This document shows, one piece after another, positions 1 to 57,729 of a stretch of 64,000 nucleotides of DNA. The position numbers and the translations under genes are program-made. The notes below the pieces were generated by a model. That model saw nothing but the letters and a program-made list of their open reading frames with translations. It was not told the DNA's origin and made no database searches. The DNA is taken from IMG/VR virus record IMGVR_UViG_3300048502_000015, positions 1 through 64,000 of that record; one strand, written 5' to 3'. This DNA comes from a virus. Lineage: Duplodnaviria > Caudoviricetes. Within the stretch, counting starts at the first letter, position 1, and every line of letters starts with the position of its first letter.

Positions 1-24
1 GCAGTGGTATCAACGCAGAGTACT
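1..24 (+). other. library adapter (SMART/template-switch, low-input amplification adapter), not genomic
   Basis: GCAGTGGTATCAACGCAGAGTACT matches the AAGCAGTGGTATCAACGCAGAGTAC(T) oligo. Confidence 0.93.
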
Positions 25-26
25 CT

Positions 27-3000
27 ATTATGCCCAAATAGGGGAGCGCTCATATCAAAGGACGGACAGGATGTCAAGTCCCATGTATCCATTGGCCTAT
101 CATACTGGCTGGATGATGTCAAGCCACGCTTGTCCCAGTCATCTGCTATAGTATGTGTATGCGTGTTGTCCTTGCTACATTGCTTACTCTGCTTGCCGAG
201 TATATCGGACTCGCTCTTGTCCCAAGACATGTTGCCCATCATGACTTGATCGGAGTGTTGATCATAGTCATTGCCCTTTGGATGATTCTGATTATCAGTT
301 TGATTCAAACTTTGATGATTCAAACCAGAACCAAATAAATCCCAATCAAGGGACAATTTGTTTCGGCGCTTCATGAATTGATCTACCCTCGTCTTTCCCG
401 CAGGCGACTCTCGTAGCTCATCTATTTCGTTGCCGATCTGGGAAGAATGCGTGTACTCCTTTGTCGGAGACATTCCTACAGGATTGTTCTCTGGGATATG
501 CCAAGTCTCTCCTAATTGATTATCCGCATTCATTCCATGAATCGGGCAAGTTAGTTTCTCCCCGATAATGCAAGAGCAGCCATGAAGTTCTGGATGGCCT
601 TTCGGATCATCAAACTCTCTGCTGTCGTCATGATCGGCCAAGAATTGTTCTAGCTCCTTGACAATTGGTTGTCCTTGTGCATGAGGAGGGTTCTTACTGG
701 GGTGGTCTGAGAGGATAATCGAAGATTTATGCTCTTGTTGCCATTGGTCTGAGAGGAGTTTGGACTTCTTTGAAGGCCAAGCTGATGTCATAGGGGTACC
801 ATAGGGTACATAAGGATTAGTTTGATTCGTCCCTCGCATCACATCAATCTGATGAGTAACCGGAGGATCAGGTACAAGCCTAATCCGACTTGGATCAATG
901 TCCCCCGGATGATAAAATGACCCGCCCAAATCGCCTAAATAATCTTCACCATAATCATCGCCCCAAGGATCGTGATGAATTGGTAACCCCGTTGTATCAA
1001 TTTGCCATACATCGTTCCGCTCGGGATGATATAGATATGGATCTGTTGAGTATTGTGGATGCTTTGGTGTCATAAATACCGCTGGCTGGGGATCAACATC
1101 GGGATCACCATTTGCCCTTAAACCATTCTGCTGAATACTATTCCGAACTGTCTTCGGTGCTTGATGATACATTGTAGTCGGGGCATTTTGAATTAGCTCC
1201 CCATCTGGTCCCCAGATTCCCATCGAATAATGTTCGATATCTGATACCTTATCGGGCTTAATGTTCCATATCTGGTACTTTAAACCATTCTGTCCATTCT
1301 GGAGTCTATTGGCCGTTCTTCGATATGCTGGCCGATTTTCTGGAAGCCGGAAGTCTGTCTTGCAGTTAGGACAATAATGAGTCGGCTGTTCATATTGGCC
1401 ATTCGTCACAGGCGTCCATCCTGCTCTGCCGCTATTGAACAATCCCTGCCCGCAATGAGGACATTGAGCCATTCCTTCATAATGCCACCAATCTTGGCTG
1501 CCGCCTTCTCTTCTAGGATATCCCCATCCTTCCCCGCCCAAGTCTGATGGAGTTGGCCATTGCTTCTGAATATATCCATTAGCATCGGCGTATTGTTTTA
1601 GCCGCTCAATTGTATTAGTATCAGGCGGGCGATTGCGCTGGCCAAGGATACCCATGACCGCAGGCAACCGTTCCACTTGTCGCACTCGGGACGCGGGCCA
1701 AACCTCAGGCGCATTGGCTGTATCAAAGAATGCCGCTCTCGGAATTCCATGAGGATCGTGCAAAGCCATATATCTTGTGCCCTGCAACGATGTAGGGAAT
1801 TTTCCATCTGTGCTCTGCCAACAGTTGTGCATCATTTGTCCAACTCGATTAATGTCAAGTTTGTTAGGATGATGCTGAACCGTCCAGCCATCATCGAATT
1901 GATGCACGACCTGAGATTGCGGCTGATACTTTTGGGAGAACGATTTGTTCAGGTCCTCCCATTCTCTGATCTCTTGGGGCAATGTCATTGTCGCCGTTTT
2001 GCCTTGATGGATTGGCCCGAGATCCCATCCCTCTCCATAATCCTCCATTGCTTGCGGCAAATACTTATCCCGATGAAGCATTTGATTCATTGGCTCGTCC
2101 CATCCGACCGGATAGTAATTCCGGCATTCAGGGCAATGGATATATCCCTTGAGGATATTCGCTGGCTCCAAAGGAGAATGGCAATTTGGGCATTGGATTG
2201 AAGCCAATCCGTTATCTGTCCGATCCTGTGCTATAATGGTCTTATGAGAAAAAATATTTGGGAGATCCTCGATGCATTCCTTGTCTTTGTTCTGTTTGTC
2301 AACGCGGCTATTTTGATCTTTGGTCATCCCGATCTCAGCGAAGTCAAAGGCGTAGTCGGCCTCCTTTGCATCTTGATGGTCGGCGTCATTGCTAAGGGCA
2401 ATGCTTAGATGACTATCCTTATGATTATCATTTTCTTCTGGCTCATTATGGCCGGGACTTCCTTTGGCCTTTCGATTATCTTTGCTCTCTGCGACCCATT
2501 CAAACGCCCATGGGTTCTCGACGCCAATCTCGTGTTTATGGGCTGCGGCATTGTGTACTTGATCTTGGCCCTGATCTTTACTATCATCAACGCCATCGTC
2601 TAAATGACCCCAATCCTTGCTCGCATCATTCTCGGCATAATGCTGCTTATCAGCATTGTAATGCTGGCCATTTATGCTCCCATTGTTTTGCTGTGCTTTG
2701 GGGTTATTGCGGTGCTGGGCTTCTTCATGGTGGCTTTGGTCTATTTGATTGAGCACGCTTGGCCCTACTGACTCAAGCTTCCAAAGCGGTTCTGCCTTTG
2801 ATTCATCGTCCTTAATATGGACTTGCCAGCCGGGATAATCATGATCAGCCTCGTCCCGGATATGCTCCTTGAAATCTTTAGTCGGATTGTCTAGCTCGAT
2901 ATGCATCTCATGATGCTCATGATCTAGTTTGATCTTTCCGCCGTTTGATTCGACATCTTCTTTGACTGATGCCGTCCATTCTTGAGGAACTGTCAAAGGC

Positions 3001-4004
3001 GCATTCTCATTAACTTGGTTGGCCCAATCTTCGATATGCATTGGGCTAGGCTCAGAGTTAGGAAGAATGGATCCCTCGTCCATCCATCCTTGAACCTGCT
3101 CAGGACTGTACTTTCTTCTTCGATCTCCGATATCGAAATGATGCTCGCCGCCTCCGAATCCTCGATATGTCATCAAAGCAGGATTGCCCAAGTTCTGGCC
3201 AAGCGGATTGCGATCATGGCGATACTTGAGCGTCTGCAACAAATACATTTGGCGAGGGGACCAGACAGCATATTCCTGTCCAGGCAACAATGCAGCAATT
3301 CGTTGATTAGATGAATTCGTGCCAATTAGACTTCTTGGCTTAGTAGGCAACTTAGCTGGCTCGCCATATGAATATGGCCATTCCCATTCTTCTCCTGTCG
3401 GATATGATCTCCCCGGTTGCCAAGGCTCTTCTTCAATTGGAATCCAGCTTCTAAAGCCCGATTGAATCTGAGGCAAGCTCCACATTAGATTCTCGGCGTG
3501 TCCATAAGGATCGGCTTGAACAGGAGCAGACGGAAGCAACGAACCAACTTCCAATCCAGCGTTCGCAATCATCGCTCGCTGATCTTGATCTAGGAAACGT
3601 TCTGGCTTTGCATCAGGGCCTCTAAATGGATTGAACTGCCAAACCGATCCATCTGAATTGATGTGGAAATTGGATGATGGAATAGCATCTGTTTCGTAGT
3701 TGCGTTCGACTCGTGCTTGCTGTTTCTTCTGGTCATGATTTGGCCGCATATCTTTGGTCGGCCAAGTCCAAACCGATCCATCCTTGAGGATAAATCCTTT
3801 GCCTTCTTGTCCCGGATTCCATTCAAGCTTATGCTGAGGCAAACCTGCCAACTTGACATCTTGCCAATCCGAAAAAACGTCATCTTCTGTCAACTTCGTA
3901 TCGTTTTGATACGGAATGTGTTGAACATTAGCTGTCAAGCTATTAGGTACAACATTTGGTAGCACATTTGTATCATCGGGACTTAGCTTATCTGTTGTAT
4001 TCAT
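27..4004 (-). CDS. giant multidomain (polyvalent) protein, 3'-truncated by contig end, >=1326 aa; CxxC Zn ribbons, PcfJ-like domain, Tpt1/KptA-like ADP-ribosyltransferase fold
   Basis: Hand translation from ATG at 4004 (MNTTDKLSPDD) has no stop to the window edge; motifs VVHQFDDGWTV..GQMMHNCW..YMALHDPHGIP..ILGQRNRPP and TMYHQAP..SIQQNGLRA..DVWQIDTTGL..GDIDPSRIRLV. Confidence 0.85.
144..152 (+). promoter_or_regulatory. extended -10 promoter TGCTATAGT for leaderless gene at 159
   Basis: TGn-TATAnT followed 6 nt later by ATG, same geometry as many minus-strand promoters in the window. Confidence 0.6.
159..338 (+). CDS. small 2-TM membrane protein nested antisense in the giant ORF
   Basis: MRVVLATLLTLLAEYIGLALV..LIGVLIIVIALWMILIISLI; leaderless promoter. 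Confidence 0.6.
   Translation: MRVVLATLLTLLAEYIGLALVPRHVAHHDLIGVLIIVIALWMILIISLIQTLMIQTRTK
2227..2237 (+). promoter_or_regulatory. extended -10 promoter TGTGCTATAAT, leaderless start at 2244
   Basis: consensus TGn-TATAAT, 6-nt spacer to ATG. Confidence 0.75.
2244..2408 (+). CDS. small 2-TM membrane protein (54 aa) nested antisense
   Basis: MRKNIWEILDAFLVFVLFVNAAILIFGHPDLSEVKGVVGLLCILMVGVIAKGNA*. Confidence 0.7.
   Translation: MRKNIWEILDAFLVFVLFVNAAILIFGHPDLSEVKGVVGLLCILMVGVIAKGNA
2409..2603 (+). CDS. small 2-TM membrane protein (64 aa) nested antisense
   Basis: abuts previous stop (TAGATG); two hydrophobic helices. Confidence 0.7.
   Translation: MTILMIIIFFWLIMAGTSFGLSIIFALCDPFKRPWVLDANLVFMGCGIVYLILALIFTIINAIV
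2604..2771 (+). CDS. small 2-TM membrane protein (55 aa) nested antisense
   Basis: abuts previous stop (TAAATG); MTPILARIILGIMLLISIVMLAIYAPIVLLCFGVIAVLGFFMVALVYLIEHAWPY*. Confidence 0.7.
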   Translation: MTPILARIILGIMLLISIVMLAIYAPIVLLCFGVIAVLGFFMVALVYLIEHAWPY

Positions 4005-11302: not shown

Positions 11303-12406
11303 TTAGACGGCCCAGCTTGTGCGGTTCTTTGGCTCGTCGGGATCAATTAGCTTCCATCCCTGGGCCTCTGCCAACTTCACAATCGACTGCTTACGAGACT
11401 TCTGACGCTGTAGGAGGGCATCCCAATCGAAGATAGAGGGATAACGATCTTCCTCCGCTTCCTGATCGAGTTGGTAATTATCCTCGTCCTCCTCATCCTC
11501 TTCATCCTCGTACTGCTCAGGATAGCAGAGGCAGCATTCCAGATCACCACAGTTGTTGTCGTCGTTAAGGGCGTCATAATCTACGTCCTCATCTTCGTCG
11601 TCATCTACGTCAGCCCCGAAATATGCGGACTGAATCTCCGAGTGAATGACATCGGCCACGTAGTAGCGGCAGACACGGATCTTCTCCCAGTCACTATCGG
11701 TCGGGACCGAAACCACGTCACGAGGGTTCACATGAACTTCCAGGACAGTACCGGCGAAGCTATTTGCATAGCGCCAATTACCAACGTGAAGTCCGGTCGA
11801 ACAACCAACTGACGGATCGTGATGAACCTCAAGGCGAGGCATCTCAATGACTGATCCAAGCGGGTTAGGAATGTATCCGTTGACCACTTCGCCATCGACA
11901 ATTGCCCGACCCGAATGAACGCTCTGGAAGCCGTTCTCAGTTACCGTAACGCCCTTGTAAGCCACGATGTACCCATCCTGGTCAATCGTGAAGTCACGAC
12001 GGCTAAGCCAATCGTAAAGCTGCTCACGAGAATGAGGATGCGGATTCTGGGCCACGTTCTCCAAGAAACGGACAAGCGGGGTCCAATCTCCAATTCCTTC
12101 ATTCAGGAAGCGGACGATCTGCTTTGAGAGCGAATCATTGACTTCATCGTTGTCGAGATACACACGACCGTTTGCAACCGAGACACGCTCTGACAGCGGC
12201 TTGAAGTACTTCGCAGCGGTCTGAGCAACATCAAACAGATCGATCAACTCTTCATCAGAGTAGTCAAGATCCTCGTCAACAACGGCGATGACGATCTCAT
12301 CGTAATTCGGATGAGTGTTGTTCGCCAGAAGCGGATTCTCTCCTGGGATATAGACGGTGATGCTGGACTCTTCTCCGTCGCTTACAATTGAATACTTGCG
12401 TGACAT
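11303..12406 (-). CDS. rIIB: rIIB-like protein
   Basis: FLEN..NP..QLYDWL..DGYIVAYKGV..CSTGLHVG..VNPRDVVSVPTD..KIRVCRY. Confidence 0.9.
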   Translation of the reverse strand: MSRKYSIVSDGEESSITVYIPGENPLLANNTHPNYDEIVIAVVDEDLDYSDEELIDLFDVAQTAAKYFKPLSERVSVANGRVYLDNDEVNDSLSKQIVRFLNEGIGDWTPLVRFLENVAQNPHPHSREQLYDWLSRRDFTIDQDGYIVAYKGVTVTENGFQSVHSGRAIVDGEVVNGYIPNPLGSVIEMPRLEVHHDPSVGCSTGLHVGNWRYANSFAGTVLEVHVNPRDVVSVPTDSDWEKIRVCRYYVADVIHSEIQSAYFGADVDDDEDEDVDYDALNDDNNCGDLECCLCYPEQYEDEEDEEDEDNYQLDQEAEEDRYPSIFDWDALLQRQKSRKQSIVKLAEAQGWKLIDPDEPKNRTSWAV

Positions 12407-14347
12407 TTAGATTGTCTCCTGTTCCGCGAGGTAGCTCGCATTAATGTAGATAAGGGTGTGCGTAAGGTGGTTCGTGTTGATTAGCGGGTACTTCTCAAGG
12501 GGATTAACCCATTCACTGTATTGTATCACATTATGTCCACGCTCATAACGTAGAACTTTGTTAAGGTCATCGAGCTTTGTCACAACATCTTTCGGTAGCT
12601 CGTATGTGGCAAGCTTGATTCCCTCCACAACAGCCGGGTCTTCGATGTAGTCTTCAATCGGAGCGTAGCTAAGCTCACGAAGAGAATTAAGCGCCCACTG
12701 ATGCTCAGATCGCTTGAGGCCATATACCTGCTTCTCTTCCTCTGTAAGAAGATCAGCGGTATCCTTGTATGCCTGAATAACTGCATCAGTGACCTTGATC
12801 GCGGATGGGAAATCCCTCTGGAACTTCGAAATACGGTTCAGGGCAAGCTCGACCAAAGTGCTATCAGGGTAGTTTACTCGAACGTATGCCGTCACATTCG
12901 AATCCGTTTCCTTTGTGTACCAGAAGAGATCCTCTGAAGTATCAATGTCGGCAGCCATCACGTCATACTTGTAGCTACCCTTGACCACGGCGTTGTAGGA
13001 GCCACGCAGACGGTTGTTGCGGGTATGAATGGTGGTTTCCAGCTTGATGGCCTTGATAAGGCCCCAATCAACCATCAGGTTGGAATCAATCCAAGACACG
13101 TTCAGCGGAGTATTCGTCAGAATGTAATTGCTCGGGGCAAGTGCATTCTCTACCGAGTACTGAAGCAGCTTCTTCTTGTGGGTCGGAGTGAAGCTATCGT
13201 GATCGTAGCCATGAACCAGAAGTCCATCAACGAAAGTCTCGGCATTGAGCGCCGGATAGCGACTTGATGAGTTCAGCTTATAGCTATTGGCAGGAGCAAC
13301 AACAATCCGCTCGCCGGTAGGAGCATCGATCTGTTCAGGAATGTCGCTCTTCTGATAAGTGAAGTTGACCTTGGTGTTGACGATAATGTTGCGCCAGTCA
13401 ACCGACTTCCTGAAAGCCTCGATAGAGGAAGCAGCCGAATCGATGTCCTTCTGTGCAGCGTCGATAAGACCAGCTTCAACCTCAAGAGCAACGCGCTCAA
13501 GCGTAGCCTTGGTCTTCTTCGTGTACTGAAGAGTCTCACGACTCGGAGTGAAGTTGACATCCCCGATGTTGACGTAAGCCACAACGCTGTAGCTCTTGCT
13601 GAGTGTGGGGAGATTAAGATCGTCCTCGTTGACCGGGTAAGGAACGCCGCCCATGACAACGATGTGCTTGCGGGTATGAAGGTTGACGTTCTTCTGGATC
13701 AGCAGGCTATCAGAGACACTGAAGCCCTCGGCATAAGCAGGCTCTTCCCCATTCAGGAGAACCGTTCCGGGCTTCCAAAAGCTGAAGAAATGCTGAGCCT
13801 TGCGACTGATCTCGTTGTAGCTCTTAGCCGGGATAATGATCTCGACGCCGTTCTCCTCGACCGTAAGACTCTGCTCAAGGATCGTCATTGATCCTGCGCC
13901 GTCCTCATCGCGGCCAATGCTGACCATCGTGCGAACGCCATCCTTGATGCCGACAAGCGTGAACTGCGAAGTGTAGGTAAGAGCCGACTTGCAGCCAAGT
14001 CCAAGGACACCGACCTGCTCGTTTGTCTCGCGCTTAGTTGAAGCGCCGTACTTGGAGTAGGTGTTGATGATGCCTGCCTCGTCCATGCCGACGCCGTAAT
14101 CCTTCACCTTGAAGAACGGTGAAAGACTGGTCGGAGTGGTAACCTCAATCGGACGAGTCTGACCGGCCTCAACATGAGAGTCGAGTGCGTTGGTGCTGTA
14201 CTCGCGGATGATCGCAAGCTCCTGGTCGGAGTAAAGGTCCGTGAGAACCGACATTAGATGAACGAGCGAGTTCTCATCGAACTTCATCCCGATCTTGTTG
14301 CCCTCAATGTTTCCTTGAACTTGAATATCGGAGCGGTCAGCGATCAT
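12407..14347 (-). CDS. rIIA: rIIA-like protein (GHKL/HSP90-type ATPase N-terminus)
   Basis: IREYSTNALDSH..DYGVGM..GASTKR..GLGCKS..SRETL; adjacent to rIIB. Confidence 0.9.
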   Translation of the reverse strand: MIADRSDIQVQGNIEGNKIGMKFDENSLVHLMSVLTDLYSDQELAIIREYSTNALDSHVEAGQTRPIEVTTPTSLSPFFKVKDYGVGMDEAGIINTYSKYGASTKRETNEQVGVLGLGCKSALTYTSQFTLVGIKDGVRTMVSIGRDEDGAGSMTILEQSLTVEENGVEIIIPAKSYNEISRKAQHFFSFWKPGTVLLNGEEPAYAEGFSVSDSLLIQKNVNLHTRKHIVVMGGVPYPVNEDDLNLPTLSKSYSVVAYVNIGDVNFTPSRETLQYTKKTKATLERVALEVEAGLIDAAQKDIDSAASSIEAFRKSVDWRNIIVNTKVNFTYQKSDIPEQIDAPTGERIVVAPANSYKLNSSSRYPALNAETFVDGLLVHGYDHDSFTPTHKKKLLQYSVENALAPSNYILTNTPLNVSWIDSNLMVDWGLIKAIKLETTIHTRNNRLRGSYNAVVKGSYKYDVMAADIDTSEDLFWYTKETDSNVTAYVRVNYPDSTLVELALNRISKFQRDFPSAIKVTDAVIQAYKDTADLLTEEEKQVYGLKRSEHQWALNSLRELSYAPIEDYIEDPAVVEGIKLATYELPKDVVTKLDDLNKVLRYERGHNVIQYSEWVNPLEKYPLINTNHLTHTLIYINASYLAEQETI

Positions 14348-44912: not shown

Positions 44913-45122
44913 TTAGGAAATTCTTTGAACAACTACTACTTGAGTATCCCCTTTCATGAAGGTCCGGACTACCTTACTCTTGATATTGACCTGTCCAGGA
45001 TGGGCATGAACGATTGCACCAGGACCATACTTGGGGGCCGGTATAACCACACCCAAGTCTTCGTTGTTCCAATCTCTCGTGTATAGCTCTTCTACAAAAA
45101 GAGCCTTAGTATGTTTGCTCAT
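44913..45122 (-). CDS. hypothetical protein (leaderless)
   Basis: TGTGATATACT 6 nt before ATG. Confidence 0.65.
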   Translation of the reverse strand: MSKHTKALFVEELYTRDWNNEDLGVVIPAPKYGPGAIVHAHPGQVNIKSKVVRTFMKGDTQVVVVQRIS

Positions 45123-45140
45123 ATACATAGTATATCACAA

Positions 45141-50092: not shown

Positions 50093-50176
50093 CTAATGAA
50101 CTCCTGCTGCTACAAGAACGGCTACAACGTAGCCTATCAAGATAAACAACAAAAGCGCAATCAATTTATAGTTCAT
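50093..50176 (-). CDS. 27-aa membrane peptide (leaderless)
   Basis: TGTGATATAAT-6nt-ATG; MNYKLIALLLFILIGYVVAVLVAAGVH. Confidence 0.55.
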   Translation of the reverse strand: MNYKLIALLLFILIGYVVAVLVAAGVH

Positions 50177-50200
50177 AACTACATTATATCACAGTTTAAG

Positions 50201-51112: not shown

Positions 51113-51302
51113 TCGTCAAGCAGGGACCAGAACTATATTGATCGTAGCTAACCGATCTAGCCTTTACAACATAACGTTTACCGTCGATGTCAAAGGAAAT
51201 CCAAGTTGGCTCGTAGCCACAATTATCAGAAACGCCGACAATCGTTGCGGTCTTTCCTTCGAGTCCTACAAACTCGTTCTTCTTGACTGTTTCAAATTCC
51301 AT
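51096..51302 (-). CDS. hypothetical protein (leaderless)
   Basis: TGATATACT-6nt-ATG. Confidence 0.65.
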   Translation of the reverse strand: MEFETVKKNEFVGLEGKTATIVGVSDNCGYEPTWISFDIDGKRYVVKARSVSYDQYSSGPCLTIKREI

Positions 51303-51326
51303 AACTACAGTATATCATACTTCAGG

Positions 51327-52790: not shown

Positions 52791-52942
52791 TTCGGAAGTG
52801 GTCCTCGATTTGAATCGTCATAAAAGCTATCCTGAAGGTCCTCTTCAAGTTCAAGAACTCGATCAAGGGCTTCAAGCAGAAGACCAACTATTTCACCGAA
52901 CGAGAACCGTTCTTCGTAATATTCTCTAGTGTGTCGTTCCAT
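52733..52942 (-). CDS. hypothetical protein (leaderless)
   Basis: TGCTATACT-6nt-ATG. Confidence 0.55.
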   Translation of the reverse strand: MERHTREYYEERFSFGEIVGLLLEALDRVLELEEDLQDSFYDDSNRGPLPNWPAEESGNFATMSPIFII

Positions 52943-53049
52943 AACTACAGTATAGCAGAACTTCAAAATTCGTGCAACACCTTAACCACCTGAACGTTGG
53001 CCCAATTCGGCAAAGAACTTAGGGCCAGTAGTCTAGGGCGTTACACAAG

Positions 53050-57438: not shown

Positions 57439-57624
57439 CTACCGAATTACAAAACGTCCCTGTCCAATGTGGCGGCGAGAACACTCCCTCTTCAAACCTC
57501 TAAGAAGTTTGTTCTTTTCGTCACTCATAGAGCCAAATCCGGATGAATAAAGCGCTGAAGTTAGAGAAAGAATTTCCTCGTCCGAGAAGACCGACCAACG
57601 AATCTTATTTGGAGTTTTGTTCAT
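57439..57624 (-). CDS. hypothetical protein (leaderless)
   Basis: TGTGATATACT-6nt-ATG. Confidence 0.6.
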   Translation of the reverse strand: MNKTPNKIRWSVFSDEEILSLTSALYSSGFGSMSDEKNKLLRGLKRECSRRHIGQGRFVIR

Positions 57625-57729
57625 AACTATAGTATATCACATAAATAGGCTCGCAAGGGGAATCAAAACCTATCGGAGCGCTCCCCAGCGCGGTTTAGAT
57701 AAGGATTTATATGATCGTTTGTCCGCCTA

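Follow-up and report, generated by a model that had tools for sequence, protein, structure and literature searches.

The setBA operon, which encodes the ShET1 enterotoxin, lies on the opposite strand inside pic/she in Shigella flexneri 2a and enteroaggregative E. coli. To our knowledge, it has not been described as a design that recurs within a gene family. setBA has been mentioned in the literature as a nested gene pair (PMC3219829). The locus considered here is similar in outline. In a 160,424-bp contig of an uncultured peat phage lineage, within its first 64 kb (IMG/VR record IMGVR_UViG_3300048502_000015; this whole stretch of 64,000 nucleotides is called the window), a cassette of three small open reading frames (ORFs) lies on the plus strand within one giant minus-strand gene, and the sequence evidence indicates that the locus probably holds real nested antisense protein genes. 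As with setBA, a multi-gene operon would sit wholly within a much longer opposite-strand gene, both being taken as expressed. setBA differs in being a single bacterial locus that is not leaderless, that encodes secreted toxin subunits and that has an autotransporter gene as its host.

E. coli O157:H7 and Pseudomonas aeruginosa also have antisense embedded overlapping genes on record, where they are supported by promoter-like elements, expression data and purifying selection, and where an origin by de novo overprinting is presumed (PMC9927249, PMC8850804). The present cassette shares with them the antisense ORFs embedded in annotated genes and the accompanying promoter-like elements. It departs from them in its location in a protein spacer, in its exact leaderless geometry and in the standalone copies of a nested gene found in related phages, which point to the capture of a pre-existing small gene.

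The host gene resembles those of the phage polyvalent proteins reportedly described by Iyer, Burroughs, Anand, de Souza and Aravind in 2017, since it encodes a giant chain of shuffled independent modules and has homologues with Acb1-like, cREC and NUDIX modules. We know of no polyvalent protein gene that houses antisense genes in its spacers, and the literature searched described none. Overlapping genes are familiar from lambda Rz/Rz1 and phiX174, in which a small membrane-associated gene is likewise embedded in a phage gene; these differ in that both genes share a strand, the frame is shifted and the inner gene has no promoter of its own. Leaderless messenger RNAs (mRNAs) are made from the middle and late genes of the Thermus phage phiYS40. 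Transcription of lambda cI from PRM also yields a leaderless phage mRNA (PMC10491246). In these cases, as predicted here, the first nucleotide transcribed is the A of the ATG, as set by an extended -10 element; unlike here, the genes are not nested. The new element would be a phage version of antisense nesting, with a leaderless promoter and, in relatives, a clean flip of selection.

The antisense cassette and its promoter class

The cassette begins with an upstream element read from the sequence, TGTGCTATAAT (2227-2237, plus strand), within which the extended -10 promoter TGCTATAAT occupies positions 2229-2237. Six nucleotides, GGTCTT, separate this promoter from the ATG at 2244, and a leaderless transcript start is predicted at A2244. 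Nested ORF1 (2244-2408, plus strand, 54 aa), with this leaderless start, is followed by ORF2 (2409-2603, plus strand, 64 aa), whose ATG abuts the TAG of ORF1, and by ORF3 (2604-2771, plus strand, 55 aa), whose ATG abuts the TAA of ORF2. Each is predicted to encode a protein with two transmembrane helices, and Kyte-Doolittle values over 19-residue windows reach 2.7-3.0 in the hydrophobic helices of each. All three run exactly codon-for-codon antisense to the minus-strand ORF 4004->3, which wholly encloses the cassette. An earlier note on this DNA, made from the letters alone, had described the promoter with its ATG 6 nt on, the three two-helix ORFs of 54-64 aa with their TAG|ATG and TAA|ATG junctions, and the antisense register, and all of these were found where it had placed them.

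Stop|ATG junctions without a gap are also the style between bona fide genes of this phage, large ones included, for example at 12409, 87240, 89952, 95193, 102067 and 147549 and between rIIA and rIIB. Separately, a 7-bp hairpin, TGGATTG-AAGC-CAATCCG, lies at window 2194-2211 (plus strand), 18 nt 5' of the cassette promoter; it may be a chance structure or part of the cassette boundary.

The spacing between promoter and ATG is a property of a wider class. Across the genome, the pattern TG.TA...T-N-ATG shows a sharp peak at a spacer of six nucleotides (N6), with 20 sites at 19 distinct loci, 16 of which are followed by an ORF of at least 50 codons. Other spacers give 0-9 sites and 0-6 such ORFs, the 6 being accounted for by N7, which is also raised. 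In its strict form, TGNTATANT-N6-ATG, the pattern has 9 window matches where 0.06 would be expected, and at most one in any of 100 shuffles; a loose form gives 11 window matches against 1.9 expected. Seven of the strict sites are minus-strand gene starts, and the only two on the plus strand, at 2229 and 144, both fall inside one giant gene, in the exact antisense frame, each heading a two-helix ORF. Other members of the class head genes with primase-like, helicase-like and ligase-like motifs, as read by eye. The earlier note had counted at least eight minus-strand leaderless genes of this geometry, which is roughly right: TGNTANNNT-N6-ATG has 9 minus-strand matches, 7 of them followed by ORFs of at least 59 codons. 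Judged by these counts, promoter-N6-ATG is a real signal in this phage, and the nested ORFs carry expression signals of their own beyond chance.

The second plus-strand site consists of the extended -10 promoter TGCTATAGT (144-152, plus strand), six further nucleotides and an ATG at 159. The ORF that follows, ORF159 (159-338, plus strand, 59 aa), again has two predicted transmembrane helices and is exactly antisense to another hydrophilic spacer, located about 40 residues past a folded module of the giant protein, module D. Judged by synonymous codon usage, the small frame here looks like a gene (z = +0.39), and the giant frame does not (z = -2.0).

Codon choice within the giant gene points in the same direction as the promoter counts. 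When the giant protein was held fixed and synonymous codons were drawn from genome usage, a promoter-N6-ATG arose in 1.8% of redraws (P = 0.018), a start codon directly after every antisense stop in 1.7% (P = 0.017), and at least three tiled ORFs in 0.08% (P = 0.0008). Conversely, when the small proteins were held fixed, 7.95 giant-frame stops were expected and none was seen (P = 1e-4), so the avoidance of in-frame TTA, CTA and TCA that the earlier note had proposed to look for in the small genes is present. These three codons together make up 3.4% of codons in the genes of this genome. Both frames thus show signs of being kept open.

Several smaller observations concern the same promoter class. 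Near-identical promoter-start boxes, TGATATACT-[A/G]TAGTT-ATG, occur on the minus strand at 45120-45137, 50174-50191, 51300-51317, 52940-52957 and 57622-57639, where they head ORFs of 27-69 codons among transfer RNA (tRNA) genes; the 27-codon ORF at 50176 encodes a membrane peptide. They may form a repeated promoter-plus-small-ORF cassette, recalling the mobile early-promoter cassettes of T4-type phages. At genome 97200-97448 (plus strand), a leaderless (N7) two-helix membrane ORF of 82 codons lies between minus-strand structural genes without being overlapped, so the phage also appears to set such genes backwards between genes and not solely inside them. Additionally, a 64-codon ORF of soluble appearance lies behind a strict leaderless promoter at genome 132764-132958 (plus strand). 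It overlaps a 240-codon minus-strand ORF (132706-133428), so that the locus is a third overlap unless the long ORF is spurious.

The giant gene, its spacers and related phages

The part of the giant gene inside the window (3-4004, minus strand) comprises the first 1334 of its 2848 codons, and the gene continues at genome 159710->155146. The contig ends share a 691-bp exact direct repeat (window 23-713 = genome 159711-160401), and two other assemblies of the same phage cross the junction without interruption; it follows that the genome, of about 159.7 kb, either closes into a circle or has terminal redundancy, and that the minus-strand ORF from 4004 is not cut. It stays open across the cassette, as the earlier note had stated, and reaches its full length once the circle is closed. 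Opposite the cassette, residues 412-587 of the giant protein (2244-2771, minus strand) form a hydrophilic spacer of 176 stop-free codons. D/E/N/Q/H/K make up 54% of its residues and 36% of those in the remaining protein, which bears out the description of a linker rich in these residues.

An exhaustive profile search with residues 1-1200 as query against 1.84 billion proteins returned 98 relatives of the giant protein, each matching single modules only (residues ~55-180, 235-323, 650-812, 824-896, 940-1059 and 1120-1191). The order and position of these modules vary among the relatives, which are proteins of up to 3053 residues, and some modules occur as separate proteins. By these sequence comparisons, the giant gene is modular and of the polyvalent type. 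Homologous modules lie in the same frame on both sides of the cassette. In the same search, residues ~324-636 had no covering homologue except an identical copy, and the spacer therefore appears lineage-specific. No intein or intron signature was detected in the giant gene by a Pfam scan. The relatives' giant genes lie downstream of a Collar/tail-fibre gene; here, too, a tail-fibre/Collar-like gene lies directly upstream, and this is the sole hint toward the late or virion status that the earlier note had assumed for the giant protein.

A side observation concerns the edges of the spacers. W-x-[FIL]-x motifs (WKL, WHI, WRI, WHF, WNF) flank spacers in this protein and in relatives, for instance at window ~2772-2790 (minus frame, ...PLWKLES). 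If these motifs are protease cleavage marks, the antisense-coded spacers would leave the mature proteins.

The strongest comparison comes from seven contigs whose homologous giant genes carry embedded small genes of their own (L004, L005, L007, L008, L010, L030, L031). These copies combine TGCTAnnnT-N6-ATG with a conserved membrane ORF of 41-44 aa that starts MINPN (or MHINPN) and is the exact antisense of a hydrophilic spacer; in the first four relatives fetched (L004, L005, L007, L008), the ORF has 41-43 codons. L010 is a complete 170-kb IMG/VR phage, in which the -10-N6/7-ATG geometry is used genome-wide. In the spacer of the seven embedded copies, the ratio of nonsynonymous to synonymous polymorphism (pN/pS) is 0.94 in the giant frame and 0.46 in the antisense small-ORF frame. 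In the adjacent folded module D of the related phages, the corresponding values are 0.25 and 0.99. Which frame is constrained switches right at the spacer, where the relatives show purifying selection on the small frame and not on the giant frame. The most variable codon position in the embedded copies is the third of the small ORF, which is the first of the giant frame. Moreover, the -10 bases TG and T-A...T are invariant in the relatives, although they fall at synonymous positions of giant-frame Ala and Val/Ile codons.

The MINPN gene also exists on its own. Standalone copies in six other contigs (L011, L012, L013, L028, L032, L033) are translationally coupled to an upstream gene and lack a long antisense ORF. 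TTA, CTA and TCA codons number 1-6 in each standalone copy and 0 in the embedded copies, and in none of the seven embedded relatives does a stop interrupt the giant frame. Within the giant proteins, the spacer-plus-small-gene unit adjoins different modules in different proteins and therefore behaves as a unit of its own. A metagenome scan with the MINPN alignment added two loci only, with the same small-gene sequence.

The cassette and the MINPN copies have several things in common: a host gene of one family, a position in a spacer, the exact antisense register, promoters of one class and a sense footprint, His-x-x-[I/S/T]-[I/V]-Ala. The likeness is one of architecture only: membership of the cassette ORFs or ORF159 in the MINPN family was rejected (local alignment z -0.5 to 0.7), as was paralogy among the four window ORFs (z at most 1.3). 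A weaker antisense site, TGCTATCCTCCA-N-ATG with a 27-codon ORF, occurs in two relatives (105712 in the L010 record, G001, and 3675 in L008) and falls on a sense motif, H-x-W-R-I-A, that is conserved where two modules meet. Conservation at these sites may belong to the giant protein, and caution is advisable in counting every such match.

Weighing the explanations

The claim of a self-promoted membrane operon nested in a low-constraint spacer, with the giant frame open, is indirectly supported in its core, because the promoter class is enriched, codon choices favour the promoter and the tiling, about 8 stops are avoided, and relatives share the geometry and show selection on their own small frame. 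A number of results weigh against it. Given the amino acids of the spacer, 3.8 antisense stops are expected and 3 were seen (P = 0.44), and elsewhere in the giant gene this antisense frame likewise has open stretches of 81-174 codons; the length and hydrophobicity of the antisense ORFs are therefore no evidence alone. This agrees with the caveat in the earlier note that hydrophilic codons yield a hydrophobic antisense read automatically, while a promoter and abutting junctions, which are rare in the redraws, do not come for free. Synonymous usage in the cassette small-ORF frame (z = -3.7) is like that of antisense controls (-4.3 +/- 1.2), and the giant frame is equally poor there. The terminator scan gave no convincing terminator after ORF3. 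Additionally, the evidence from the relatives concerns a small-protein family other than that of the cassette, the locus has the same sequence in each of its three public copies, and the cassette ORFs and ORF159 are orphans in every library searched and dissimilar to one another.

The searches behind this last point covered several collections. ORF2 had no candidate homologue in a set of 5.8 billion proteins and a top score of 0.87, below a meaningful level, in the ESM Atlas; ORF1, ORF3 and ORF159 had none in IMG/VR; and Pfam and PHROGs gave nothing usable for any of the four. Among GenBank phages, no match was found with the giant protein, the DNA or the standalone MINPN member P0106 as query (the cassette ORFs were not queries), and IMG/VR scans with the giant protein or a module-B alignment also found nothing. 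The comparison of genomes with and without the cassette, suggested in the earlier note, thus returned only identical copies of the cassette itself, but the same design with another small gene in the relatives. As candidate functions, a class II holin and a T4 Imm-type exclusion protein fit in size and in the two helices; they were rejected for want of charged C-terminal tails and of any Pfam or PHROG match.

These results bear differently on the competing explanations. If the ORFs were shadows of composition, with the D/E/N/Q/H/K-rich spacer opening the antisense frame and with the promoter-like site and the His-Leu junctions coincidental, the stop count, the open stretches elsewhere in the gene and the missing cassette homologues would all follow, as would the ATGs, which arise from the His CAT codons common in the spacer. 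Coincidence is nevertheless very unlikely to account for two strict promoter sites in the giant gene, each heading a two-helix ORF, when so few are expected per window, for tiling as rare as that found with the protein held fixed, or for the same architecture being conserved and selected in relatives. The promoters could also be real and serve a regulatory antisense RNA that controls the timing or amount of giant gene expression by interference or pairing, with translation of the ORFs incidental or absent. The reality of the promoter class, the occurrence of both sites in one giant gene, the orphan status of the cassette ORFs without measurable selection, and the antisense-like codon usage of their frame are all compatible with such an RNA. 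It is an unlikely explanation, since the exact N6 to the ATG is the geometry of leaderless translation and needless for an RNA regulator, since tiled stop|ATG junctions are improbable, and since the nested ORF of the relatives is constrained as a protein and is a standalone gene elsewhere.

The converse possibility is that the small genes are real and the giant frame is not expressed through them, either because the cassette is removed or bypassed or because the giant gene is in fact a set of separate genes. The 176 stop-free codons where about 8 stops would be expected, the giant frame free of stops in every embedded relative with stops present in the standalone copies, a pattern sensible only with ribosome read-through, and the lack of an intein or intron signature in the Pfam scan make this most improbable. 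On its side are the flanking modules, which occur in other orders and as separate proteins, and the spacer of the relatives, which evolves like non-coding sequence in the giant frame.

Proposed mechanism, significance and genome context

Under the favoured reading of real nested protein genes, the host-type extended -10 TGCTATAAT would start transcription at the A of the ATG at 2244, because the geometry is that of ordinary genes of this phage, and would yield a leaderless mRNA. A 70S ribosome would load on the 5' AUG and translate ORF1, and ORF2 and ORF3 would be made by termination-reinitiation at TAG|ATG and TAA|ATG, resulting in three two-helix membrane proteins. The giant gene would read through the same DNA, where the hydrophobic NTN codons become hydrophilic NAN codons and give a disordered, low-constraint spacer between folded modules. 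The sole cost would be the avoidance of TTA, CTA and TCA in the small genes. By analogy with the relatives, small membrane-protein genes may have been captured backwards into polyvalent-type spacers, with the small gene bearing the protein-level constraint.

As to timing, the small proteins might be made together with the replication genes that use this type of promoter, earlier than the giant gene or separately from it, a guess prompted by the primase-, helicase- and ligase-like genes headed by this class and by the linkage of the giant gene to a tail-fibre gene. They might act at the host membrane, for instance in superinfection exclusion, membrane-linked counter-defence or lysis timing. A broader and rather doubtful proposal is that small membrane-protein genes with their own promoters regularly land in the spacers of polyvalent genes, in reverse orientation and in frame. 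The giant gene would then read the insert as a hydrophilic, dispensable stretch of spacer, which might be trimmed off at the W-x-[FIL] module boundaries. The perfectly antisense transcripts could form a switch like that of type I toxin-antitoxin systems, in which leaderless peptides would come first and be silenced by the giant mRNA, or the reverse.

All public annotations of these phages call the giant gene only, because gene finders forbid fully overlapping antisense genes. If the favoured reading is true, a class of phage membrane proteins would be systematically missed. The case made by the relatives is unusually clean for antisense dual coding, as the constraint flips between module and spacer and the small gene stands alone elsewhere. 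The design also suggests a simple rule by which dual coding can be cheap: in reverse, the gene of a membrane protein reads as a hydrophilic spacer, and giant modular proteins can accommodate such spacers. In uncultured peat phages, the nested genes would supply testable candidates for phage functions at the membrane and for a timing switch based on antisense transcripts.

The genome as a whole encodes portal, terminase, head, ribonucleotide reductase and tail-fibre-like proteins, together with 35 tRNA genes and one transfer-messenger RNA. The locus is present in public reads from peat metagenome runs. In one run from a related strain, 2400-3400 is uncovered, and hence no cassette variants were obtained from it. 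One peat metatranscriptome contains contigs on 174-657, 2379-2729 and other places; these come from unstranded assemblies of a library that possibly contains DNA, and they were used for no conclusion, as strand, start and level are unreadable from them.

Two minor features of the window may be added. Positions 1-26 are an inverted copy of the last bases of the contig and are probably an assembly artefact. At 11303-14347 (minus strand), rIIA-like and rIIB-like genes stand in a minus-strand block with a zero-gap TAA|ATG between them, and Pfam assigns HATPase_c_3 (weakly) and Phage_T4_rIIB to the pair.

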